From: Bacilli bacterium
GTDB taxonomy: Bacteria > Bacillota_I > Bacilli_A > ML615J-28 > CAG-698
Direction of reading: 5' to 3'
DNA: 64,000 nucleotides
Assembly: GCA_050953065.1 (NCBI GenBank)
Contig: JBMNLZ010000003.1
Location: 256,001-320,000 of the forward strand
Position numbers and translations under genes: made by a program. Below the pieces are notes generated by a model. That model searched no databases. It was not told where the DNA came from and worked only from the letters and a program-made list of their open reading frames with translations. Positions 3,196 to 23,074 of the stretch are shown here, piece by piece. The stretch's first letter is position 1; the number at the start of each line of letters is the position of its first letter.

Positions 3196-3443
3196 TTAGA
3201 TTGCTTTAACTAAAATTATATCTTTATCTAAAGCACCTCGTTCACTTTTTTTACTAATTCGTTTTGTTTGATATTCAGCAACTATAACGTTTTTATATTC
3301 TAAAATCACATGAATAACCTCATCAACATCAACTAATTCTTCTAAATACTCATTATCTTCTAAAACTCTAACAATACCTTTTTTCCATCTTTTTTAATAA
3401 TATTCGGAATATTATCTCTAACTAATTTATTATAAATCATCAT
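3196..3443 (-). pseudogene. Degraded MazG-like / PRA-PH nucleoside triphosphate pyrophosphohydrolase
   Basis: MMIYNKLVRDNIPNIIKKDG, then a frameshift in an A-run, continuing GIVRVLEDNEYLEELVDVDEVI...ERGALDK. Appears internally shortened relative to the family. Confidence 0.7.
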
Positions 3444-3523: not shown

Positions 3524-4027
3524 TTATCTTTTTTTCCTCTTACTTCTATTATCATGGAACATCTTATCTAACATTAAAACTAATGCTACATAAAACTCTG
3601 CCATTTCTTCATCAAAAATTGCAATTTCATATGTGTCTCCGAATGAAATAACTTTCTTTCTAACCGCAACAACTTGCTCTTCACCTTTAAATATTTCAAA
3701 AGTATAAGCATAGATGTCTCCTCTAATTTTAAAGTCTCCATAGATTGATTCAATCGTCATTTTTTGAGTTAAAATTGAAATTCTTTTTTTGATTTTAGCA
3801 ATTCGTTTACCACTTGGATCTTTTAAATAGTAAACTGGCAAAATTCTAAATATCTTTTTATTTAATGTATATATATGTCTATTAGTAGCCGTTTCGATTA
3901 TCTTAGTTTTTCCTGATAATGAAAACAGTTTACTAATCATATTGTAAAGCACTTCTTTATTCTCATTATAAACTTTATATTTGTCTTTAATTTGAAAAAC
4001 ACCTTGTTTTAAAAAATATCGTTTCAT
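3524..4027 (-). CDS. LURP-one-related / scramblase-like protein
   Basis: YFLKQ...D.Y.V and ISFGDTYEI pattern typical of the LURP-one family. Confidence 0.8.
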   Translation of the reverse strand: MKRYFLKQGVFQIKDKYKVYNENKEVLYNMISKLFSLSGKTKIIETATNRHIYTLNKKIFRILPVYYLKDPSGKRIAKIKKRISILTQKMTIESIYGDFKIRGDIYAYTFEIFKGEEQVVAVRKKVISFGDTYEIAIFDEEMAEFYVALVLMLDKMFHDNRSKRKKR

Positions 4028-7947: not shown

Positions 7948-9243
7948 TTAATTACCTTGATACCAACTTTCATCTTTATACCAAAGAATACTATCTTCAT
8001 CACAGAAATACCCTTCATACCAAGATGAAGCATCATAGTTTTCATCTTCATTAACAAACCTATTTCCATAAAACTCATATGAAAAATCTTGAATATTAAA
8101 AGAATATTTATATAAGTAATTCATCTCTTCATCATTATAAAAAGGATCAATAAAAAGTTCAACTCCACTATAAACACTAATAGCTGTAGAATCATCAGGT
8201 GCAGGTTCAGTTGTATAGTCTTTATCACCTGAAGATGGCATGATATTCCCTGCTGCATCACCACTTGCTTCCTCTAAAAAATCATATCTATAATCATAAA
8301 GATTTTCAATCTCATAACCTACCTTAAACTTTTGAATACCTTCAACATCAATCTTACTAATATTAAATGTTTTTAAATATGTATCTTGTGAAATCTTTAA
8401 AACCAATTCTAAATTATCAGAACCTTTTAAATCTAGGATGCTTTTATGGATTAAATTTGAATCCTTATATAATTCATAACTTAATTTTTGAATATCACCA
8501 TCTAGGTAACTCATTAGTTTTACATAATTTTGATTTGAAGCAGTCTCTGCAAAAACTAACATTTGGAATTGATTAGTTATTAAATTTTGAATTGAATTAA
8601 TTCTAAACTCTACACTTCCAATTTCTAAAGAACCATTCATGATAATTTTATTTTTTTGACTATAATCATTTGTATAATAAATTGTATAACTAACTTCATT
8701 TCCTAAAAGATCAGTAGCTGAAAAGATAATCTTTTCTTGATATTCAGGCCTTTCTGATTCTAAAAGTTGATAATTCATATCATCTTTAGAGCCAATAATG
8801 ATTTCAAAAATATTTAAGTAACTATTTAAAAACTTTAAATCTTTTTTTTCTAATGAAACAGTACTACTACTTGTTGCACTCATTGGCCCCAAATTGCTTT
8901 CATCTAATGAAAGTTTTAAAAGAAAACTTGATGAAATACTTGTAAAACTGTATAATTCTTCTCTATGAGATAAAGGAGATGCACTCATACTAGTAGCATC
9001 AAGTGCTGCATATTTTCCTTTACCAACTCTATCAACTGATATAATTGCAACTATTGCTAAAACAGCAATAAAAATAAAAGAAAGTCTTGGAAGTAATTTA
9101 AGAAAGGCATTAGGTTTAAAAAGAGCAGTCTCTTCTATTGGTGCCTCAAATACAATCGTCTTAAGATCTATTTTATCAGTAATATTAGGAATAGAAGATT
9201 TCATTCCCTCATTAATGATTTTTTTAATTTCCTGTTTTTTCAT
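7948..9243 (-). CDS. Putative anti-sigma factor / single-TM membrane protein
   Basis: Overlaps the ECF sigma stop. Short cytoplasmic N-terminus, one TM, large extracellular part. Confidence 0.55.
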   Translation of the reverse strand: MKKQEIKKIINEGMKSSIPNITDKIDLKTIVFEAPIEETALFKPNAFLKLLPRLSFIFIAVLAIVAIISVDRVGKGKYAALDATSMSASPLSHREELYSFTSISSSFLLKLSLDESNLGPMSATSSSTVSLEKKDLKFLNSYLNIFEIIIGSKDDMNYQLLESERPEYQEKIIFSATDLLGNEVSYTIYYTNDYSQKNKIIMNGSLEIGSVEFRINSIQNLITNQFQMLVFAETASNQNYVKLMSYLDGDIQKLSYELYKDSNLIHKSILDLKGSDNLELVLKISQDTYLKTFNISKIDVEGIQKFKVGYEIENLYDYRYDFLEEASGDAAGNIMPSSGDKDYTTEPAPDDSTAISVYSGVELFIDPFYNDEEMNYLYKYSFNIQDFSYEFYGNRFVNEDENYDASSWYEGYFCDEDSILWYKDESWYQGN

Positions 9244-9802
9244 TATTTACTTCTCCTTTCTTTTGCATTTTCTTCATTGCTTGATTATATAACCACATTA
9301 CAGTGCCTATTTTTTTATCTAATAATTTAGCAATATCTTTGTGTTTCATATCATCAACTATTTTTAATGTTACAATTTGTCTTTCTTCCACCGTTAAGAT
9401 ATCTAAAAGTTCATCCATTTCAAGTTGTAAACTAGTTCTTGGAGCCTCATGCGGAAGCATAAATTCACTTTCAGATGCATCAATTAAAAGTTCTCTTTTT
9501 CTTTTTCTATAATAATCAATTGCTTGGTTTTTAGCGATTGTTAATATCCAATTTTTAAAACTATTTCCTTCTTTAAATTGATAAATTGATTGGATTGCTT
9601 TCATATAAGTATCTTGCATTACATCTTCTGCTAAAGAGCGATCTCTAATGATTGATAAAATCATTGCATAAACTGCCTCTTTAGTTTCGTTGTATATATA
9701 CTCAAAAGCTTCCTCGTCTCTTTCTTTTAATTTTTCAATTGCTTTATTAATATCCATACTTACCCCTCTATTATATGTATTAATAATAGCACAAGGAAAC
9801 AT
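9224..9802 (-). CDS. ECF (sigma-70 family) RNA polymerase sigma factor
   Basis: Region 2 (AEDVMQDTY, FKNWILTIAKNQAIDYYRK) and region 4 HTH. Likely start is MDINK. Confidence 0.9.
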   Translation of the reverse strand: MFPCAIINTYNRGVSMDINKAIEKLKERDEEAFEYIYNETKEAVYAMILSIIRDRSLAEDVMQDTYMKAIQSIYQFKEGNSFKNWILTIAKNQAIDYYRKRKRELLIDASESEFMLPHEAPRTSLQLEMDELLDILTVEERQIVTLKIVDDMKHKDIAKLLDKKIGTVMWLYNQAMKKMQKKGEVNNEKTGN

Positions 9803-12952: not shown

Positions 12953-13108
12953 TTATTCTTCATTATTTTTACTTTCTTCATTTTGTTCTTTTGGTCTTGT
13001 AATATGATTTAAAATTACAATTCCAAAAAATATAATTGTTATAGCAATAAAAGTTGCTAACATTCCTTTCCATAAAATCTCAAGTGCTTGCATAAAATAT
13101 TTCTCCAT
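12953..13108 (-). CDS. OadG-like small single-TM subunit (51 aa, not in the ORF track)
   Basis: MEKYFMQALEILWKGMLATFIAITIIFFGIVILNHITRPKEQNEESKNNEE. RBS GGAGGGG. Directly downstream of oadB. Confidence 0.7.
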   Translation of the reverse strand: MEKYFMQALEILWKGMLATFIAITIIFFGIVILNHITRPKEQNEESKNNEE

Positions 13109-13117
13109 ATTCCCCTC

Positions 13118-14254
13118 CTACAATAATCCTGGAACAATATAAAGAATTACTCCACCAACTATAACAGAAGCAATTTGTCCTGCAACGTTTGCTCCAACAG
13201 CAAACATTAATAGGTGGTTAGTTGGATCTTCTTTAAGTCCCATTTTTTGAATAACTCTTGCAGACATTGGGAAAGCTGAAATTCCAGCTGCACCAATCAT
13301 TGGATTTATTTTCTTTCTACTAAATATATTAATTAGTTTTCCAAATAAAACTCCACCAATTGAATCAAAAATGAAAGCAAACAATCCTAATCCCATAATT
13401 AAAATAGTTTCTAATGCAACAAAACTTTCTGCTTGCATACTAAATGAGATAGTAATTCCAAGTAATAATGTAATAAGATTTGCTAAAACCTTACTAGCAG
13501 TTTCTGACAAGCTATCTAATACGCCACATTCTTTAATTAAGTTACCAAACATCAAAAATCCTACTAAAGAAACTGACGCTGGAGCAATTAATCCTGCAAC
13601 AATGGTAACTACAATTGGAAAAAATATCCTTGTAGTTTTACTAACGTTTTGTGGATCATAATCCATTTTAATACTTCTTTCTTTTTTTGTTGTAACTAAC
13701 TTAATAGCAAACGGTTGAATTACAGGTACAAGTGCCATATAAGAATATGCTGCTATTGCTATTGCTCCTACATAATTGCTTTTTAGCACTCTTGAGACGA
13801 GAATTGAGGTTGGTCCATCAGCTGCTCCAATTATACCAATTGAGGCAGCATCTCTTAACTCAAAGCCAAGTAATACCGCTAAAATAATAACTATAAAAAT
13901 TCCTATTTGAGCCGCTGCTCCAAAGAATATTAATTTTGGATTTGAAAGTAACGGTCCAAAATCAATCATTGCGCCAATTCCAATAAAAAGTAATAACGGT
14001 AATGCTTCTGATGCATCAATTCCCACATCAAATAACCAAGATATAATACCTGTAGCTTCAGTTCCATCAGCTAATGTTTGAGTTAAAACTCCAGAATTAG
14101 GCAAGTTAACTAAAATTGCACCAAATCCCATTGGTAAAAGTAGGGCAGGTTCCATTTCTTTTCTAATTGCTAAATAAATTAGAATAAACCCTACTATGTA
14201 CATTACTATTTGTTGCCATGTGATTTGGGTAATCCCTTCATATAAAAAACCCAT
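13118..14254 (-). CDS. oadB: Sodium ion-translocating decarboxylase beta subunit (OadB/GcdB/MmdB)
   Basis: EPALLLPMGFG, IGIIGAADGPT, AYSYMALVP and GISAFPMSAR motifs. Confidence 0.92.
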   Translation of the reverse strand: MGFLYEGITQITWQQIVMYIVGFILIYLAIRKEMEPALLLPMGFGAILVNLPNSGVLTQTLADGTEATGIISWLFDVGIDASEALPLLLFIGIGAMIDFGPLLSNPKLIFFGAAAQIGIFIVIILAVLLGFELRDAASIGIIGAADGPTSILVSRVLKSNYVGAIAIAAYSYMALVPVIQPFAIKLVTTKKERSIKMDYDPQNVSKTTRIFFPIVVTIVAGLIAPASVSLVGFLMFGNLIKECGVLDSLSETASKVLANLITLLLGITISFSMQAESFVALETILIMGLGLFAFIFDSIGGVLFGKLINIFSRKKINPMIGAAGISAFPMSARVIQKMGLKEDPTNHLLMFAVGANVAGQIASVIVGGVILYIVPGLL

Positions 14255-14303
14255 TAATTGTCTCCTTACTTTAAAATTTTTTAACTTGTTTACTAAATAC
14301 TAT

Positions 14304-14337
14304 TAAAACAGAATATTTTAACAATATTCTGTTTTAA
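14304..14337. terminator. Hairpin between hppA and oadB
   Basis: TAAAACAGAATATT...AATATTCTGTTTTA inverted repeat. Confidence 0.5.
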
Positions 14338-14366
14338 ATAGTCTATTATTATTTGTTTTTCTAATT

Positions 14367-16472
14367 CTAGAAAATACTATACATTAAGAATAACATTGCC
14401 ATTAATGATGCAATTAATGAAACAACTGTAATTTGAGTGTTAATAGAAGGTCCAGCTGTATCTTTAAATGGATCACCAATAGTATCACCTACTACTGCAG
14501 ATTTATGAGCCACACTTCCTTTTCCACCGTTATTTCCAGCTTCAACATATTTCTTAGCATTATCCCAAGTTCCACCAGCATTAGACATATATAAAGCTAA
14601 GAATAATCCTACTACGATATTTCCTAATAAGAATCCACCAATAGCTTTAACTCCGCCTAAGAATCCTACTACTAAAGTAGCGATAATTGTAAAGCCTCCA
14701 GCGATCATTAATTCTCTAATAGCTCCACTAGTTGCAATAGCGATACATTTATCATATTCAGGTTCAACACCTGCTTTACCTTCTTTTAAACCAGGAATTT
14801 CTTCAAATTGACGATGAATTTCTGTTAACATTCTTTGAGCATTCTTATCAACACCTCTAATTAATAAAGCAGAGAATACCGCAGGAATTGTTGCTCCGAT
14901 TAAAATACCAAAGAACACAACTGGGTCAAGTACGTCAAAGCCTGTTAATAATTCATATGTTCCAACTCCTTGATGCATAAGTCTTTCTATAATATCATTT
15001 ACTTCTGCAAGAAAAGCACCAAGTAGAGAAATTACAGTAAGTCCTGCTGCAGAAATTGCAAATCCTTTTGTAATAGCTTTTACAGTATTTCCAGCACTGT
15101 CTAATTCATCAGTGATTGCAATAACCTCATCAGTAAGTCCACCCATTTCAGCTAAACCTCTAGCATTATCAACAATTGGTCCGTAAGCGTCATTTGAAAC
15201 AATCATCGCAACAATTGATAACATACCAACAGCTGCCATTGAAATACCAAGCATACCAGATGTTACATCACCACTAATAGGGAAACAAATCTTATATGAT
15301 AATAATGCTGATAAAGCAATTCCAACCATTGCAGGGAATGAACTTAAGAATCCATAACTAGTACCTGATAATACTGTAAATGCAGGGCCTAATTCAGATG
15401 CTTTAGCAACATTTTGAACCGGTTTCTTTTCATCATTTGTAAAGTAATCAGTAGTAATGCCAATTACTACACCAACTAATAATCCAATTACAGTTGCACC
15501 CCAAATACGCCATTTATCTACTAAAGGAATGATTAAAGTTGCAATTGCAGTTAATCCAACAAATAAACCAGTTGTAATATAAGTAGTTAAGTTTAATGCA
15601 CGTGTAGGATTTCCTGATTCACCAATTCTAGCTAGAATAACACCAACAATTGATGCTAATAATCCAAGTGATGCATAACAGAAAATAATTGGAACAAAAT
15701 TAGCACCTACTGCTGCGGATACAACTGCAGCAATTGTAATAGTTGCAGCAAATGCAGCAACATTAGAGTCAAATAAGTCAGCACCCATTCCCGCAACATC
15801 ACCAACGTTATCACCAACGTTATCAGCAATAACCGCAGGGTTTCTTGGGTCATCTTCTGGAATTCCTAATTCAACTTTTCCAGCAAGGTCAGCACTGATA
15901 TCAGCAGTTTTTGTAAAGATACCACCACCAACTTTAGCAAATAAAGCCAGTGAACTAGCACCAAAACTAAATCCAAGCAAAACTGTAGCATCTTTTGTAA
16001 TCCAGTAAACAGCAGTTACACCGATAAGACCTAAGCCAACTACTGCCATGCCCATAACACTTCCACCTCTAAAGCCAACATTAAAAGCAGTTTTAATGCC
16101 GTCTTTTGCAGCCTCAGCACACTTTCCATTGGCATCAGTTGCAACTTCAAGCCCTATAACACCAGCTACTGCAGAAAGAACTGTACCAAGAATATAAGCT
16201 ACTGCCATATAAATGTTTTCTTTTATAACAGCTTCAGCTTTCCAAATTGGTGTTGGCAAGAAAACAAAAATTAACACAACAGCTACTAAAACAAATCTTA
16301 ATAATACTAGGTACTCTTTCTTTAAAAAAGTTCTTGCCCCTCTTTTAATTAGTTTACCTACTCTTTGGATTTCAGCATTCTCAGATGGTTGTTTTTTAAT
16401 CCATCTAAAAAATACGAAAGCCACCACAAACGATGCGGCAGATACAACAAGCGCCAAAATATAAAATACCAT
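14367..16472 (-). CDS. hppA: Membrane-bound H+/Na+-translocating pyrophosphatase
   Basis: GGGIFTKTADISADLAGKVE, EDDPRNPAVIADNVGDNVGD, DAYGPIVDNA, GGTWDNAKK and GDTIGDPFKDTAGP. GNTVKA carries Lys at the K+-dependence position. Confidence 0.95.
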   Translation of the reverse strand: MVFYILALVVSAASFVVAFVFFRWIKKQPSENAEIQRVGKLIKRGARTFLKKEYLVLLRFVLVAVVLIFVFLPTPIWKAEAVIKENIYMAVAYILGTVLSAVAGVIGLEVATDANGKCAEAAKDGIKTAFNVGFRGGSVMGMAVVGLGLIGVTAVYWITKDATVLLGFSFGASSLALFAKVGGGIFTKTADISADLAGKVELGIPEDDPRNPAVIADNVGDNVGDVAGMGADLFDSNVAAFAATITIAAVVSAAVGANFVPIIFCYASLGLLASIVGVILARIGESGNPTRALNLTTYITTGLFVGLTAIATLIIPLVDKWRIWGATVIGLLVGVVIGITTDYFTNDEKKPVQNVAKASELGPAFTVLSGTSYGFLSSFPAMVGIALSALLSYKICFPISGDVTSGMLGISMAAVGMLSIVAMIVSNDAYGPIVDNARGLAEMGGLTDEVIAITDELDSAGNTVKAITKGFAISAAGLTVISLLGAFLAEVNDIIERLMHQGVGTYELLTGFDVLDPVVFFGILIGATIPAVFSALLIRGVDKNAQRMLTEIHRQFEEIPGLKEGKAGVEPEYDKCIAIATSGAIRELMIAGGFTIIATLVVGFLGGVKAIGGFLLGNIVVGLFLALYMSNAGGTWDNAKKYVEAGNNGGKGSVAHKSAVVGDTIGDPFKDTAGPSINTQITVVSLIASLMAMLFLMYSIF

Positions 16473-16555
16473 TTTTCTCCTCCTTTGATATTCTTTTATA
16501 TTTTTAACACTAAATAATAAATAATTTATTATTATGTTAATGACCTAAAATTAAT

Positions 16556-16747
16556 TTTAAATTTAAAAAGTGGACATAGTCCACCCACACTTGACAGACT
16601 CCACCTAATTAAAACAATTATTTAAATTTAAAAAGTGGACATAGTCCACCCACACTTGACAGACTCCACCTAATTAAAAACAGTATTTAATTTAAAAAGT
16701 GGACATAGTCCACCCAAGCTTGACAGACTCCACCTTAATTTAAAACA
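16556..16747 (-). ncRNA. Three tandem riboswitch-like units (about 65-nt period), each an aptamer stem plus intrinsic terminator; probably Na+-I (DUF1646) class
   Basis: Minus-strand unit AGGUGGAGUCUGUCAAG(UG/CU)UGGGUGGACUAUGUCCACUUUUU. Plus-strand unit starts at 16565, 16630 and 16694. Terminator GUGGAC-UAU-GUCCAC-U5 is mutually exclusive with stem AGUCUGUC/GGUGGACU. Located in the hppA leader. Confidence 0.7.
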
Positions 16748-17007
16748 GTTATTATATAAACACATCCACGTTTAAAATTGTATCACTTAATTATTTTAAA
16801 ATCAAGTAGTTTTTACTTTTTATTACACGTGTAAATTTTTAAAATTATTTAAGCTATCATTTCTATCAAGATTAAAAATAGAGATTCATACTTTAAAATT
16901 TTTTTACTTAACTTTTAATAAAAAATGCAAATTAATCAAGACTTTTCTCAATTTAATTTGCATTTTTATACTCTTTTTGCAAATTAAATTTAATTTTAAT
17001 TTGCAGT

Positions 17008-18042
17008 TTATTTTAAATATTTAATCCAATTATTTAATGATTTAACACTTCTTAAATATCCTTTAACTTCAGGACTATATAGCATTGAATTATAAATTGC
17101 TTCTTCTGTTGCTTCTACTACTGCTTGAAATAAAAGATTAAGATGTTTTTGAGATAAAACATTTTGTGTTAAAAAACTAGCATCATCTGTTGCACTAATA
17201 GTATTTGCAGTAGTAAATCCTACAAAAACATCTCCACTACCATGACCTACATAAGAACCCGTTCTTCCTATTGCAATACTTGCTCTTTTAACAATTCGCC
17301 TCAAACTATTATTATCAAGTCCAATATCAGTTGCAACTACTACTATAATAGAACCTTTATCTTCTTCACCTTTTGAAGATTCTTTTTGAATCTCTTTACC
17401 AATTGGTTTACCATTAACAATTAAATCTTTACTACTAGAATGTCCAAAGTTAGAATTTATCAAAACTCCTAAAGTGTAAGTTTTATCATCAATTACTATT
17501 TCTCTAGAGCTAGAGCCAATTCCCCCCTTTAACCCATGACAAATCATTCCAGCACCTGCTCCAATACTTCCTTGGAAGTTATTAGTATTAGCAGAGGTTA
17601 TAGCTTCTTTTACGTCTTCAAACGTAACAGCTATTTTTCTTATATTATTTAATTTACCATCATTACATTCTAAAACTATTGGATTAACTGTGCCAAGTGA
17701 AAGTCCTAGTTCAGGATTTTCATCAATTAAAATCCTGACTAAAGAATCACTTACCTCTCCAACAGCTAAAGTATTAGTTAACATAATTGGTGTTTCAATT
17801 GTTCCAAGTTCATCTATTTGCATTAGACCAACTGATTTACCATAGCCATTCATAACATATGAACTTGCGATAACTTTATTTAAATAAACATTTTCTTTGT
17901 GTGGCAATATCGCAGTGACACCAGTTCTAATGCCATCTTCAGCAATTAATGTTTTATGACCTACTAAAACTCCTTTAACATCGCAAATATGATTTAGTTT
18001 ACCTGGATTTAATTCTCCAACTTTAATTATTCTTTCACTCAT
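17008..18042 (-). CDS. P1 family peptidase (DmpA/S58)
   Basis: DVKGVLVGH, RTGVTAI, GAGAGM..GLKGGIGSSSR, KGSII and GHGSGD motifs. Confidence 0.9.
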   Translation of the reverse strand: MSERIIKVGELNPGKLNHICDVKGVLVGHKTLIAEDGIRTGVTAILPHKENVYLNKVIASSYVMNGYGKSVGLMQIDELGTIETPIMLTNTLAVGEVSDSLVRILIDENPELGLSLGTVNPIVLECNDGKLNNIRKIAVTFEDVKEAITSANTNNFQGSIGAGAGMICHGLKGGIGSSSREIVIDDKTYTLGVLINSNFGHSSSKDLIVNGKPIGKEIQKESSKGEEDKGSIIVVVATDIGLDNNSLRRIVKRASIAIGRTGSYVGHGSGDVFVGFTTANTISATDDASFLTQNVLSQKHLNLLFQAVVEATEEAIYNSMLYSPEVKGYLRSVKSLNNWIKYLK

Positions 18043-18944: not shown

Positions 18945-19946
18945 TTACTCTGTAAAAGCAGTTATTACAGCTGAAAAAGCAAACTTCTTTACTGATTCAA
19001 CATTATTAAGGGCTGATTCTTTTGTTGTGAATGATTCACCTGAATAAATACCAGTACTTCCTGCCCCTCTTAAAATAAATCTAAACTTTCCAAACTTATC
19101 TTCTTCTATGAAAAAGTTCTCTCCAAAGACAGCTTTTTTAAAAGTTTCAATTCCTGCTTGTGCACCTGCTAAAGTTGTATATGGTCTACTTGTATAAAGT
19201 AGTTGGCCATTATTGGCAATCAAATAGAAGTGATATCCTTCTGGACCTTTTTCAAATTCATATTTTCCAAGTGGTTTAATATCTTGAGATAAGAATTTAT
19301 TATAAAAATCCTCATCAAAAGGTTTAATTTCTTTTTTTGTTTCTTCATATAGTTTTTCTTTTTCTGGATTAGATGCATAATGTAGTATTTGAGCATCAAA
19401 TGCAAATCTTTTAACTGAGTTAATACCATTCTCACAAGATGCTTTATTATCATAGTTCTCACCAATATATCTTTTACTTAAGATATATCTATAACGATTA
19501 AACTTATCTTTATAAACTACAAAGTCATCTTCTTCAACTGCTTTTTTAAAAGTATCAATTCCACTTAAGGCACCTTGTGCAGTAGTAAATGCATAACTGT
19601 CAAATAAGATTTGACCGTTACTTGCGATTAAAGTAAAGTGATATCCATCGCGTCTTAAAGTGATTTCATATTTACCTAAATATTTAGTTTGGTCTAGTTT
19701 TTTCTTTGAAGTAGTTTTTGGCTTTTTAGGTTTTGAAGTAGTTTCTACTTCTTTAGTAGGTATCTTTTCTACTATATCTTGTTTTTCTTCATCTTTGTTT
19801 GTTTCAGCATTAGATTTTAAAGCTTTCTTTTTTTTAGCTTTTTTCCCCATTACAATAAATAGTATTATAAAAAATATAACTCCTAAACCAATTTCAATAT
19901 ACAATTCATATTTTTCTATAAAATCAATAATTACTTGAAAATCCAT
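18945..19946 (-). CDS. Membrane-anchored YegP/DUF1508-repeat protein
   Basis: N-terminal TM, Lys-rich linker, duplicated GKYE...YHF.LIA.NGQ.L..S..Y...GI..FKKA domains. Confidence 0.75.
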   Translation of the reverse strand: MDFQVIIDFIEKYELYIEIGLGVIFFIILFIVMGKKAKKKKALKSNAETNKDEEKQDIVEKIPTKEVETTSKPKKPKTTSKKKLDQTKYLGKYEITLRRDGYHFTLIASNGQILFDSYAFTTAQGALSGIDTFKKAVEEDDFVVYKDKFNRYRYILSKRYIGENYDNKASCENGINSVKRFAFDAQILHYASNPEKEKLYEETKKEIKPFDEDFYNKFLSQDIKPLGKYEFEKGPEGYHFYLIANNGQLLYTSRPYTTLAGAQAGIETFKKAVFGENFFIEEDKFGKFRFILRGAGSTGIYSGESFTTKESALNNVESVKKFAFSAVITAFTE

Positions 19947-20379: not shown

Positions 20380-21609
20380 TTATTTATCATTTAGTTTATC
20401 AATTTTACGAGCTATTTTTTTAATATCAAATCTTTCAATCTTAACTTTAATTTCAGATATCTTATTTGAAATTATTTTATCAGCTAATCCAACTATCTTA
20501 TATGAAGCCTCATATGCTTTGTTGGCTTCTTTTTTAATATCTTCAACATCTTTTTCTAAAGATGCAAGTGGTTTATCAAGATATGTAGTTTTAAAGTTTT
20601 CAAACTCTTGAATAATACTTTGAGTTTCTTTAAAGTTTTCATCTGCTATTTTTCTTTCAATTAGTAGGTTTTGGTATTTACTAGCCAGTGACTTTATTAA
20701 AGATAAAAAACTTATAAAGTAAGCTGGTCTTACCATATACATGTTTTCATATTCTGCAATCTTTTTAATTGGAGGATCATTTACCATGTCCCATTCTAAC
20801 TCACTAATTAATAAAGCATATTGGCAATTTTTTTTGATTCTATCTTGATCTAACTTTTTATAATGTTCTGAGTTTTTTGTTTTAGTTTTTGTTTCTGGAG
20901 ACTCTGTCTTCATCTCGCAACAAACAGCTAAGATTTTATCTGTTGGATTTTTTTTACTATCTGTATATACTTCAAAGATATAATCTCCTTTAGTAGCTTT
21001 TTCATCAGGAGTATCTCTTATAGCTTTAGTATCTTTATACCATTTACAGTTAGTAAAACCTGATAAAGCGTATGATTCATATTCAGCATTGCACCATTTT
21101 TCAAGTTCTTCACCTAAAACTTTTGTTTGAAGATTAGTTTTAGCTAATCTTAATTGAGCAAGTTCTAAATCTTTTTGAGAAACTTCTTCAGTATGTTGTT
21201 GTTTAAGTTTAGCTAATTCTTTATCTAATTCTAATTTATTAAGATCATCTTTTGATTTTAACTTTTCTTCTAGTAAACGGATTGCTAAATCTTTTTCAGA
21301 AAGAATTTTATCTTGAGAAGATTTTAGATTCTCAATTGCTTTATCTTTTTCTTCTTTTAATAAACTATATTCTTTATTAAGTTTTTTCTCTAGTTCATTT
21401 AATGCATTTTTTGTTTCTAGTTCCTGCTGTTTTCTTTCTTGTGCTAATAATGCATTATATGTTTCATCTTGTTTATTTTTAATTGCTGTAAGAATTGCAG
21501 TATTATCTACTGTTTGAAGTTCTTTTAAATCTATAGTATCTCCAACTTCACCTTTTTCTTCTAATTTTAAGGTAAAGGGATTTACTATACTTACTTTAAT
21601 TTTAGCCAT
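20380..21609 (-). CDS. DUF2130 coiled-coil protein
   Basis: Long coiled coil followed by K.LGEELEKWC, KGDYIF, CEMK and KLDQDRIKKNCQYALLISELE. Confidence 0.8.
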   Translation of the reverse strand: MAKIKVSIVNPFTLKLEEKGEVGDTIDLKELQTVDNTAILTAIKNKQDETYNALLAQERKQQELETKNALNELEKKLNKEYSLLKEEKDKAIENLKSSQDKILSEKDLAIRLLEEKLKSKDDLNKLELDKELAKLKQQHTEEVSQKDLELAQLRLAKTNLQTKVLGEELEKWCNAEYESYALSGFTNCKWYKDTKAIRDTPDEKATKGDYIFEVYTDSKKNPTDKILAVCCEMKTESPETKTKTKNSEHYKKLDQDRIKKNCQYALLISELEWDMVNDPPIKKIAEYENMYMVRPAYFISFLSLIKSLASKYQNLLIERKIADENFKETQSIIQEFENFKTTYLDKPLASLEKDVEDIKKEANKAYEASYKIVGLADKIISNKISEIKVKIERFDIKKIARKIDKLNDK

Positions 21610-21674: not shown

Positions 21675-22463
21675 CTACTTTTTCTTTGACGTAGTTTTAA
21701 TCATTTTACTTTCATCTAGATTATAAACTGTGTCATCAATAGATATTTTAATTATGATATCTTCTATCAGTTCCCAAGTAGTTTGATTTTTGATATTCGC
21801 AGATTTTTTATTCTCATCAAAATAACTACATTCATCTAATTCTTTTATAAATTGTCTTCTAATTTCTGGTCTTAAATGCAGACTAAAATTTAATAGATTA
21901 GCATGTAACGACGAACGCCTCTCATTATTGATTATACAGTCTTTAAACTTAAGGTAATTTAAAAGAAATCTATTGTGACTGATGGCATTTCTTAATTCAA
22001 GAATTGCCTTAAGATTTAGTGATTCAAAATGCACACAACTAAATAAATTCGACTTATCTTCTTCCTTTAATGATATCACTTGGTCAATAAGTTCGCTAAA
22101 CAAAATATCATCTAGACAACTAGTTAAATTATTTTCTTTTTCTAATTTTTTTGTAATAGGCTTAATCCAATTAACTAATTCTAATTGATCTGAGTATTTA
22201 TTGGCAATATATGCACGTAAATATTCTTCAAATAATCCCATATATTTATAAAGAACTTTTCTTATTCTTTTGTCATATCTATATGCAGATGCAATTTCAG
22301 AATATTTAACTTTACCAGATTTCATACTAGATAAATAATTGAATATAGAAAAATGCAATCCTACTCCTTTAAGTTCACAATAATATTTTGCCTTTTCAAT
22401 CTCTTCTGCTTTTATTTCAATCTCATTTAAAAAATCAGTAAAGGTCATATCTATCAACCTCAC
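21675..22463 (-). CDS. Abi-family (Abi_2/AbiD-F-like) HEPN-type protein
   Basis: YRYDKRIR...FEEYLRAYI N-terminal pattern and an Rx4H motif (LRNAISHN). Confidence 0.65.
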   Translation of the reverse strand: MRLIDMTFTDFLNEIEIKAEEIEKAKYYCELKGVGLHFSIFNYLSSMKSGKVKYSEIASAYRYDKRIRKVLYKYMGLFEEYLRAYIANKYSDQLELVNWIKPITKKLEKENNLTSCLDDILFSELIDQVISLKEEDKSNLFSCVHFESLNLKAILELRNAISHNRFLLNYLKFKDCIINNERRSSLHANLLNFSLHLRPEIRRQFIKELDECSYFDENKKSANIKNQTTWELIEDIIIKISIDDTVYNLDESKMIKTTSKKK

Positions 22464-23074
22464 TTATAAAATTCATTAATAGTTTCTAAAAATATAGAAA
22501 AAGACCTTGTTTGATCATTTCTTCTAAGATGCATATTTTTAAGTTCAAGATATCTTTTTTTAAATAAAAGCCAATATCCTTTTTCTTTAATGACTTTAAA
22601 TTTAAGCATATAATCCTTGGATTGTTTCACCTCATTCCAAATATATCTATTGCTAAACTTATCAAATATCAACTTATAATAATTTCCGTTGTTTCCTTCT
22701 TTTATAATTGCAACATCAAATGAAAAATATAATTTATTATCATATAGTAACTTTGATGTTATTACAGATGTTGAGTCTTGTGCGTATTTAAAACCATATT
22801 CAGAATTTACATTATTAAACGCATTGAGAAATATCTGTTTAATCTTATCTGGACTAGATAGCAAATTTTTTTTATCCTTTTGTAAAAAAATATTGTAATC
22901 TAAATCAAATTCTCCGCTTTCACCGTTTTTAGTCAATAATCTTTTTTCTCCACTACCTATTAACCTAAAGTCAAAAGAAAAATATTCTTTAACTTCATTT
23001 TGAACATTTAATATTATCTCTTCACAAACTTTTGTTAATATTTGTCTTTCATCTTTTTCAATATAAATATACAT
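22460..23074 (-). CDS. Pol-beta superfamily nucleotidyltransferase
   Basis: hGS motif (LIGSG), DLD and a third acidic residue in SFDVAI. GTGA overlap with the Abi gene. Confidence 0.65.
   Translation of the reverse strand: MYIYIEKDERQILTKVCEEIILNVQNEVKEYFSFDFRLIGSGEKRLLTKNGESGEFDLDYNIFLQKDKKNLLSSPDKIKQIFLNAFNNVNSEYGFKYAQDSTSVITSKLLYDNKLYFSFDVAIIKEGNNGNYYKLIFDKFSNRYIWNEVKQSKDYMLKFKVIKEKGYWLLFKKRYLELKNMHLRRNDQTRSFSIFLETINEFYK

Follow-up and report, generated by a model that had tools for sequence, protein, structure and literature searches.

This study analyzed the leader of hppA, the gene encoding a membrane pyrophosphatase, in a 64,000-nucleotide (nt) stretch of the genome of a Bacilli bacterium (NCBI GenBank assembly GCA_050953065.1, contig JBMNLZ010000003.1, positions 256,001 to 320,000 of the forward strand), hereafter called the window. 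The hppA leader carries a tandem array of three units on the minus strand, and the sequence comparisons indicate that this array is probably a conserved, so far unannotated, hppA-specific transcription-attenuation leader, in which three serial box-terminator modules would stand between the promoter and the ribosome-binding site. Four facts about the element are robust: it contains a contiguous invariant block of 14 nt (the box), this block is always followed by an intrinsic terminator, the two always lie between a promoter and hppA, and they are iterated in two lineages. Together, these facts suggest that the units terminate transcription conditionally and that the box is the part recognized by an effector. 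An initial annotation of the window had assigned the array to the Na+-I (DUF1646) riboswitches. The array is not a Na+-I riboswitch; the element is outside every named family and is regarded here as a probable leader attenuator with a new recognition motif.

Anatomy of the array

We employed Tandem Repeats Finder, a search for the repeated core, and a terminator pattern scan to describe the array (Table 1). Tandem Repeats Finder delimited three head-to-tail units of about 65 nt (64-65 nt) with a period of 65, 3.0 copies, 93% matches, 1% indels, and a score of 330. A 36-nt core recurs on the minus strand at 16570-16605, 16635-16670, and 16699-16734 with 0, 0, and 2 mismatches, respectively; it had no match in 100 dinucleotide shuffles and no further copy anywhere in the 64-kb window. 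The core reads GGTGGAGTCTGTCA, an A plus a 6-nt variable stretch, GGTGGAC-TAT-GTCCAC, and T5. In RNA terms, each module thus comprises the 14-nt box GGUGGAGUCUGUCA, 5 nt, and a G+C-rich hairpin followed by U5. The copies are unlike in their spacers, and unit 1 deviates at two loop positions; these differences indicate three distinct copies rather than a trivially collapsed or expanded repeat.

The terminator scan of 16300-17100 returned six terminator-like sites, compared with 0.1 +/- 0.4 in shuffled sequences. The three units account for five of the six, in two registers, and the sixth is within hppA. All three units have the form of a Rho-independent terminator, namely a G+C-rich hairpin with an adjoining U-run, and they are G+C-rich islands within surroundings of 27-30% G+C. 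No other terminator-like site was found by the pattern scan between the stop of the upstream gene (17008) and the array. Upstream of the array is a promoter-like site, TTGATT-17-TACAAT with a TG before the -10 element, from which transcription would start approximately 35-40 nt upstream of box 1; the promoter scan of the region yielded 7 sites against 5.6 +/- 2.8 in shuffles, such that this site alone is not significant. These results bear out the initial description of three near-identical tandem units, each with its own terminator-like hairpin, on the transcribed strand of the hppA leader; the array lies downstream of the promoter-like site at 16805-16777. The RNA 3' ends predicted there, at 16694, 16630, and 16565, coincide with the last T of each run.

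Several other properties of the array sequence were recorded. A 31-amino acid (aa) open reading frame (ORF) with an ATG start (16670-16765, minus strand) crosses unit 1 and ends at a TAG just ahead of box 2; a Shine-Dalgarno sequence is lacking. In every unit, the complementary strand of the box opens with a perfect TTGACA, and an antisense promoter-like sequence, TTGACA-16-AACAAT, is present at 16591-16618 on the plus strand, with counterparts at the equivalent place in units 1 and 2. In the window, GTGGAC-ATA-GTCCAC forms a perfect DNA palindrome.

The box is retained upstream of hppA in related loci

A genome scan with the hppA protein as the query provided 80 related loci, whose best aligned segments are 64-79% identical to it. 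Three of these 80 loci (L001, L003, and L023) have the exact 14-nt box ahead of hppA and on its strand, as does the window, giving 4 of 81 hppA loci. A search allowing up to three mismatches on both strands of the 80 loci and the window revealed no other box with 0-1 mismatch. An nhmmer profile built from the copies found nothing further, the next best match having an E-value of 0.5; the E-values for the training copies are circular, and only the lack of further matches is informative. By our own arithmetic with the base composition of L023, approximately 1e-4 exact copies of the 14-mer would be expected by chance in the roughly 450 nt upstream of the 77 other hppA genes. The hppA proteins of the box-bearing loci are 68-79% identical, yet the 14-mer is unchanged, which implies selection on the box. 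Outside the units, the four leaders have no similarity with E<1e-3.

In the hppA tree, the window, L001, L002, and L003 form one clade with 100% local support, and L023 lies far off among Oscillospiraceae-like sequences. The distribution of the box is patchy, requiring three changes on the tree, and 29 of 500 label shuffles do as well. Tandem iteration occurs in two lineages with unrelated spacers (3 x 65 nt in the window and at least 3 x 70 nt in L003). The array of L003 is interrupted at 3552-3660 by a run of approximately 100 N, which cuts one copy at its 5' end, and the true copy number is at least three. Species other than that of the window thus also carry the element described in the initial annotation ahead of hppA, and one of them has it in iterated form.

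We used consensus scans to compare the leader layouts. In L001, a promoter-like TTGCAA-17-TATAAT with TG (3228-3256) precedes the box at 3284, the terminator at 3301-3319 with T6, and the ATG at 3414; the terminator, GTGGGCA-TGCTC-TGTCCAC plus T6, has a folding energy of -9.5 kcal/mol. In L023, a TTGACA-17-TATAAT sequence that agrees with the consensus at 12 of 12 positions (1211-1239) precedes the box at 1252, a 15-base-pair (bp) terminator at 1346-1378 (-26.9 kcal/mol), and the ATG at 1450, and the fold of the 217-nt leader has a z-score of -4.39. In L003, TTGAAT-17-TATAAT with TG (3408-3436) is followed by the array. The element accordingly lies on the sense strand between a predicted promoter and the start codon in the window and in all three relatives, and the hairpin with an adjoining U-run is present in each of them. 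No promoter was predicted by the consensus scan between the terminator and hppA in L001 and L023, indicating that hppA mRNA must cross the terminator there. In L001, a perfect 10-bp A/U-rich hairpin, TATTGCTTAT ... ATAAGCAATA, lies directly after the terminator T-run (3323-3362, plus strand), with no T-run behind it.

Among the box-bearing loci, hppA was the sole gene consistently linked to the box. No neighboring gene other than hppA was shared by these loci, and the comparison of their neighborhoods revealed no candidate regulator protein encoded near hppA.

Pairing and folding of the units

The initial annotation had described, for each unit, a stem with three consecutive G-U wobbles and an overlapping terminator, and both were found where it had placed them. 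In the window, the helix AGUCUGUC/GGUGGACU has 8 bp with three consecutive G-U pairs, a variable 7-nt loop, and a folding energy of -4.7 kcal/mol alone. For a unit of the window (unit 2), the terminator hairpin alone has -9.4 kcal/mol, and a longer box-containing hairpin that abuts the same U-run has -10.6 kcal/mol. The G-U pairs and the U-runs together imply that the element makes sense on the sense RNA strand only.

The 3' half of the box (UCUGUC and flanking letters) can pair with the 5' strand of the terminator in all four lineages. Its partner is GGUGGACU in the window and L003, with three G-U pairs; GGCAUGCU in L001, with 7 of 8 pairs; and GACAGA(G)CUC in L023, located approximately 90 nt downstream, with Watson-Crick pairs. 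The 5' half of the box (GGUGGA) can pair with the 3' strand of the terminator, which reads UCCACU in the window and L001 and UCUGCU in L003. The duplex of the box with the terminator 5' strand stands out from shuffles only in L023 (-13.2 kcal/mol), where 28 of 2000 shuffles of the partner strand were as good.

RNAalifold returned, unprompted, the combined long hairpin as the consensus structure. In the long hairpin, 92.9% of the cells pair, compared with 40-54% after a shift of the partner by 1-3 columns; the corresponding values for the short terminator are 89.3% and 38-54%. The shuffle control of the pairing counts was uninformative (207/500). Once the antiterminator helix forms, the released 3' strand of the terminator can pair with the GGUGGA of the box, producing the longer hairpin at the same U-run. 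Because the long hairpin reaches the same U-run, the antiterminator helix alone does not clear the stem from it. Thermodynamics is not decisive as a guide to the direction of the switch. The ON-switch logic of the initial annotation is conjectural: the helix and the overlapping terminator exist, but the helix is weak (-4.7 kcal/mol) and does not exceed shuffles in three of the four lineages.

Proposed mechanism

We propose that each module would terminate transcription by default, both the short and the longer box-containing hairpin ending at the U-run, and that little hppA mRNA would be produced unless an effector that recognizes the box prevents terminator formation. All of the computed folds terminate, so regulation should act through anti-termination, giving an ON response. 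Most likely, the effector would hold the 3' half of the box (UCUGUC) on the 5' strand of the terminator and keep the 5' half (GGUGGA) off its 3' strand, resulting in an ON switch. With three such modules in series, the discrimination would be multiplied and the leak reduced. An OFF design, in which the effector sequesters the box and blocks the antiterminator, is possible and accounts for L023 about equally well.

If the array is such an attenuator, we lean slightly towards a trans-acting RNA-binding protein or RNA as the effector; a small ligand or ion bound directly by the RNA is a possible but clearly less favored candidate. The trans-acting factor is ranked higher because the conservation resides in one contiguous invariant block, and the pairing partners of this block drift, a pattern that is more typical of a site bound by a protein or RNA than of a pocket for a ligand.

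The protein-dependent attenuators of Bacillota, namely trp/TRAP, pyr/PyrR, and the sac/bgl RAT antiterminators, provide a model for such a design: the bound protein decides between antiterminator and terminator, and the pyr operon has three attenuators. The hppA leader resembles these systems in having a conserved recognition sequence (single-stranded or a hairpin in those systems) that adjoins an intrinsic terminator, but the box is not known to resemble any of their binding sites, and the modules stand head-to-tail in a single leader. The hydroxymethylpyrimidine pyrophosphate (HMP-PP; thiS motif) riboswitch is a very small sensor interwoven with its own terminator hairpin, and its ligand carries a pyrophosphate group. 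The hppA unit is likewise very small and interwoven with a terminator; it differs in having no Rfam match and another gene context, and ligand binding here is only conjectured. Ordinary Rho-independent terminators share the hairpin and the U-run with every unit. Unlike them, the units are located between the promoter and the start codon, are preceded by a box that is invariant across lineages, and are iterated.

Comparison with known riboswitch families

Both the array and its surroundings were searched with the models of Rfam 15, which presumably include those of the Na+-I (DUF1646) and Li+-I (nhaA-I) riboswitches. No match was obtained at the gathering score in the whole 64-kb window. At E<=10, the region 16300-17100 (801 nt) provided six matches at noise level (best E 1.2), and 16556-16690 (135 nt) provided six, the best of which had 19.2 bits with a microRNA model (gathering score 80); DUF1646, nhaA-I, and T-box were absent from both sets. 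The L001 leader yielded 18 weak matches, all far under the gathering scores and none of them to Na+-I. The Li+-I model thus had no match in either the window or the array, and the same was true of the T-box model; a 65-nt unit is also too small for a T-box Stem I. In the 31 of the 80 related loci that were scanned at the gathering score, no Rfam match lay upstream of hppA on its strand. The matches were four tRNAs and one cobalamin element on the opposite strand. The latter (L033, 3379-3539, minus strand; 79.4 bits) is upstream of hppA, serves the divergent neighbor, and is the only known riboswitch in the 31 scanned loci.

The architecture differs as well. As the text of the Na+-I paper describes it, the aptamer is built from two long paired substructures (P1 and P2), conserved letters clustering at the P1 base and in the P2 loop, and the test construct has approximately 66 nt (PMC9337991). 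Set against this text description, the P1/P2 architecture is absent from the window unit, in which one 8-bp wobble-rich helix precedes the terminator, and only approximately 30 nt precede the 3' strand of the terminator. The main text of the same paper contains neither "pyrophosphatase" nor "hppA". What the array shares with the Na+-I and Li+-I riboswitches is the 5'-leader position and an overlap between the 3' strand of a small helix and the terminator 5' strand, the ON layout as described for Na+-I (PMC9337991). It also resembles Li+-I arrays in having complete units in series, each with its own terminator; the text on that class describes tandem elements and one triple arrangement with separate terminators before nhaD (PMC9646797). 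A triple array is rare, yet this example gives it a precedent. The differences are the lack of an Rfam match, the much shorter length, the concentration of the conserved letters in one contiguous block, and the gene served, which here is of the K+-independent H+-pyrophosphatase (H+-PPase) type rather than a Na+/Li+ transporter.

The hppA protein bears on the Na+ rationale. It contains the motif GNTVKAIT, the lysine of which we take to occupy position 12.46. The residues K12.46/T12.49 are the signature of K+-independent H+-PPases, these enzymes being marked by the changes A12.46K and G/A12.49T according to the text of PMC10897367. The signature lysine is present in 81 of 81 hppA relatives. The NCBIfam NF001960 label is, nevertheless, "sodium-translocating pyrophosphatase". 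The oadB/oadG genes lie downstream as well, but behind a strong hairpin. We regard a Na+-I array as a negligible possibility: its general layout (a hairpin overlapping the 5' strand of the terminator), the nearby oadB/oadG, and the NCBIfam label speak for it, and the Rfam result, the larger aptamer of the P1/P2 type, and the pump signature speak against it. The class assignment of the initial annotation is not retained, and its Na+ rationale is weak.

Evidence against the attenuator and alternative explanations

Several results weigh against a conserved attenuation leader. The duplex of the box with the terminator 5' strand is not above chance in the window (-4.1 kcal/mol; equalled by 764 of 2000 shuffles), in L003 (848 of 2000), or in L001 (670 of 2000). 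Two-sided covariation was found in 0 of 13 RNAalifold pairs and 0 of 14 P1/P2 pairs in the alignment of only four lineages, a consequence of the invariant 5' strand. Every evaluated fold of the window keeps a stem against the U-run, and read-through must be postulated. The locus L002, the closest relative of L003, whose hppA is 81% identical to that of L003 and 75% to that of the window, has only a short leader without a box, and L042, the sister and closest relative of L023 (83% identical), also has no box. Beyond the array, both the window (16560-16531) and L003 contain promoter-like sites that are not above chance in A+T-rich DNA, and a separate hppA promoter downstream of the array is possible in both.

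The terminating folds and the downstream promoter-like sites also favor a set of constitutive terminators, which would stop read-through from the upstream peptidase/racemase operon, with hppA transcribed from a promoter downstream of the array. All evaluated folds terminate, the pattern scan shows no other terminator-like site between 17008 and the array, and the window has a further promoter-like site at 16583-16554 in addition to that at 16560-16531. This explanation is nonetheless improbable. Neither downstream site exceeds the shuffle expectation, in L001 and L023 a strong promoter aims into the box and the terminator with none predicted beyond them, and a plain terminator needs no invariant 14-nt box across lineages whose upstream genes differ. 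An assembly artefact, in which the triplication is not real, is scarcely credible: repeats are error-prone in assemblies and the L003 array is broken by an N-run, but the copies in the window differ in their spacers and at two loop positions, and L003 has an independent array.

A new riboswitch class dedicated to the membrane H+-pyrophosphatase deserves more weight, although we consider it unlikely. In this explanation, a very small aptamer of approximately 45 nt (the box, the weak hairpin, and the terminator shoulder) would bind a pump-linked ligand or ion, such as pyrophosphate (PPi), Mg-PPi, or a cation, or would sense pH; binding would turn termination off, and the head-to-tail iteration would sharpen the response into a near-digital, low-leak one. 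The association with a single gene and the lack of a shared neighboring regulator are consistent with it, as are the ON-type layout, in which a -4.7 kcal/mol helix overlaps the 5' strand of a -9.4 kcal/mol terminator, and the position of the units as G+C-rich islands in A+T-rich surroundings. Complete tandem units are, moreover, described for alkali-ion riboswitches, including the triple Li+-I arrangement (PMC9646797). However, the conservation is contiguous and confined to one strand, the partners vary by wobble and mismatch with no conserved pocket geometry evident, the box and its partner are separated in L023 by an insertion of approximately 75 nt, covariation is zero, and no known family matches.

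It is very unlikely that the array acts at the DNA level, as an operator or antisense promoter, or encodes a small trans-acting RNA. The TTGACA in the box complement, the plus-strand promoter-like site, and the palindrome suggest a DNA element, and the promoter and the terminators could bound an RNA of 60-140 nt. However, the conservation extends past TTGACA over the rest of the box but does not include the -10-like parts; L001 and L023 have not kept the palindrome; and a trans-acting RNA need not stay beside hppA, on the same strand, in distant lineages.

Other candidates were considered and rejected. A leader peptide, for which the 31-aa ORF and an ATG-started ORF across the L001 box were examined, was dropped: the frames differ, a start codon is missing in L023, and the box is invariant at all three codon positions. 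An antisense promoter starting from the TTGACA of the box complement was discarded on account of its -10 parts, which are not conserved in L001, L003, and L023, and the palindrome was discarded as an operator on account of its absence from L001 and L023. T-box-like sensing of a tRNA 3' end through GGUGGA/GUCCAC (UGGA/UCCA) was rejected: L003 and L023 have no CCA-like strand, and there was no T-box match. A two-layer G-quadruplex sensor of K+/Na+, formed by two GG runs in the box and two in the terminator shoulder, is unlikely; read from the sequence, the window, L003, and L023 have four GG runs, whereas L001 has only three, and the invariant UCUGUCA would be left unexplained. Dual GGA sites of the CsrA type, approximately 20 nt apart, are likewise unlikely, given that L001 has no second GGA. 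The best long-range duplexes between the box and hppA coding RNA had -11 to -14 kcal/mol, lay at non-homologous places, and were treated as chance. The hppA codons for TEIHR (approximately 14750-14780, minus strand, 1.7 kb downstream in the window; also in L023, L003, and L002) are complementary to the box, with -11.8 kcal/mol in the window and -20.7 in L023; this complementarity is probably due to chance because it also occurs in L002, which has no box. A dispersed repeat or mobile element was rejected, neither the 64 kb nor the flanks of the 80 loci containing another copy, and a shared neighboring regulator was abandoned after none was found among the box-bearing loci.

hppA and its genomic neighborhood

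The features of the hppA region and the box positions in the related loci are listed in Table 1.

Table 1. Features of the hppA region in the window and boxes in related loci
Feature	Position	Strand	Basis or detail
Promoter-like site TTGATT-17-TACAAT, TG before -10	16777..16805	-	consensus scan
Whole tandem array, 3 units	16556..16749	-	Tandem Repeats Finder
Box 1, GGTGGAGTCTGTCA, invariant 14 nt	16721..16734	-	identical in 7/7 aligned copies, 4 lineages
Terminator 1, stem-loop GGGTGGAC-TAT-GTCCACTT 16715-16697 + T5 16698-16694	16694..16715	-	pattern scan
Box 2	16657..16670	-	core match
Terminator 2, stem-loop 16651-16633 + T5 16634-16630	16630..16651	-	pattern scan
Box 3	16592..16605	-	core match
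Terminator 3, stem-loop 16586-16568 + T5 16569-16565	16565..16586	-	pattern scan
hppA Shine-Dalgarno sequence AAGGAGGAG, 4 nt ahead of ATG	16477..16485	-	read from sequence
hppA, 701-aa membrane pyrophosphatase	14367..16472	-	Pfam H_PPase, 745 bits; NCBIfam NF001960, 813 bits (cutoff 546)
AU-rich hairpin + U-rich tail just past hppA stop	14299..14342	-	-18.3 kcal/mol, z -7.05, 0/200 shuffles as good
oadB	13118-14254		approximately 110 nt beyond hppA; TIGR01109
51-aa ORF (oadG position)	12953-13108		weak OAD_gamma match, 21.1 bits vs cutoff 27
L001 (hppA identity 79%)	3284		1 box
L003 (hppA identity 75%)	3501, 3726		2 full boxes + partial box near 3656 cut by N-run; period 70
L023 (hppA identity 68%)	1252		1 box

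The hairpin just past the hppA stop is probably a terminator that divides hppA from oadB/oadG. It has 19 bp, nearly all of them A/U, and too few G-C pairs for the simple terminator scan; the genome has 27% G+C. The initial annotation had suggested that the array might also control oadB/G. Such control is unlikely because this hairpin intervenes after hppA and because oadB is adjacent to hppA in none of the other box-bearing loci (L001, L003, and L023).

Two further gene pairs in the window were observed on the minus strand. At 21675-23074, two ORFs overlap by 4 nt, one encoding 262 aa with a sub-threshold Abi_2 match (24.1 vs 25.6 bits) and the other 204 aa with no Pfam family; the couple may be a phage-defence pair. 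Adjoining genes encode a DUF2130 protein (20380-21609) and a protein with four DUF1508 repeats (18945-19946). At 7948-9802, an extracytoplasmic function (ECF)-type sigma factor gene (192 aa; Sigma70_r2 and r4_2) overlaps by 20 nt with the gene for a 431-aa protein that has no Pfam family and may be the anti-sigma partner of the sigma factor.

Significance

To our knowledge, the regulation of bacterial membrane pyrophosphatases is largely unknown, and we know of no RNA that senses PPi. A full-text literature search that combined hppA or pyrophosphatase with riboswitch terms returned no relevant paper on an RNA element linked to hppA, and the string "pyrophosphat" does not occur in the main text of a survey of 224 motifs. 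The invariant 14-nt box offers a handle for the pull-down of a regulator or for ligand screening, and the natural versions with one, three, and at least three copies would allow the effect of conditional terminators in series on the dose response to be tested. Should the effector be PPi or an ion, the element would constitute a new class of sensor.

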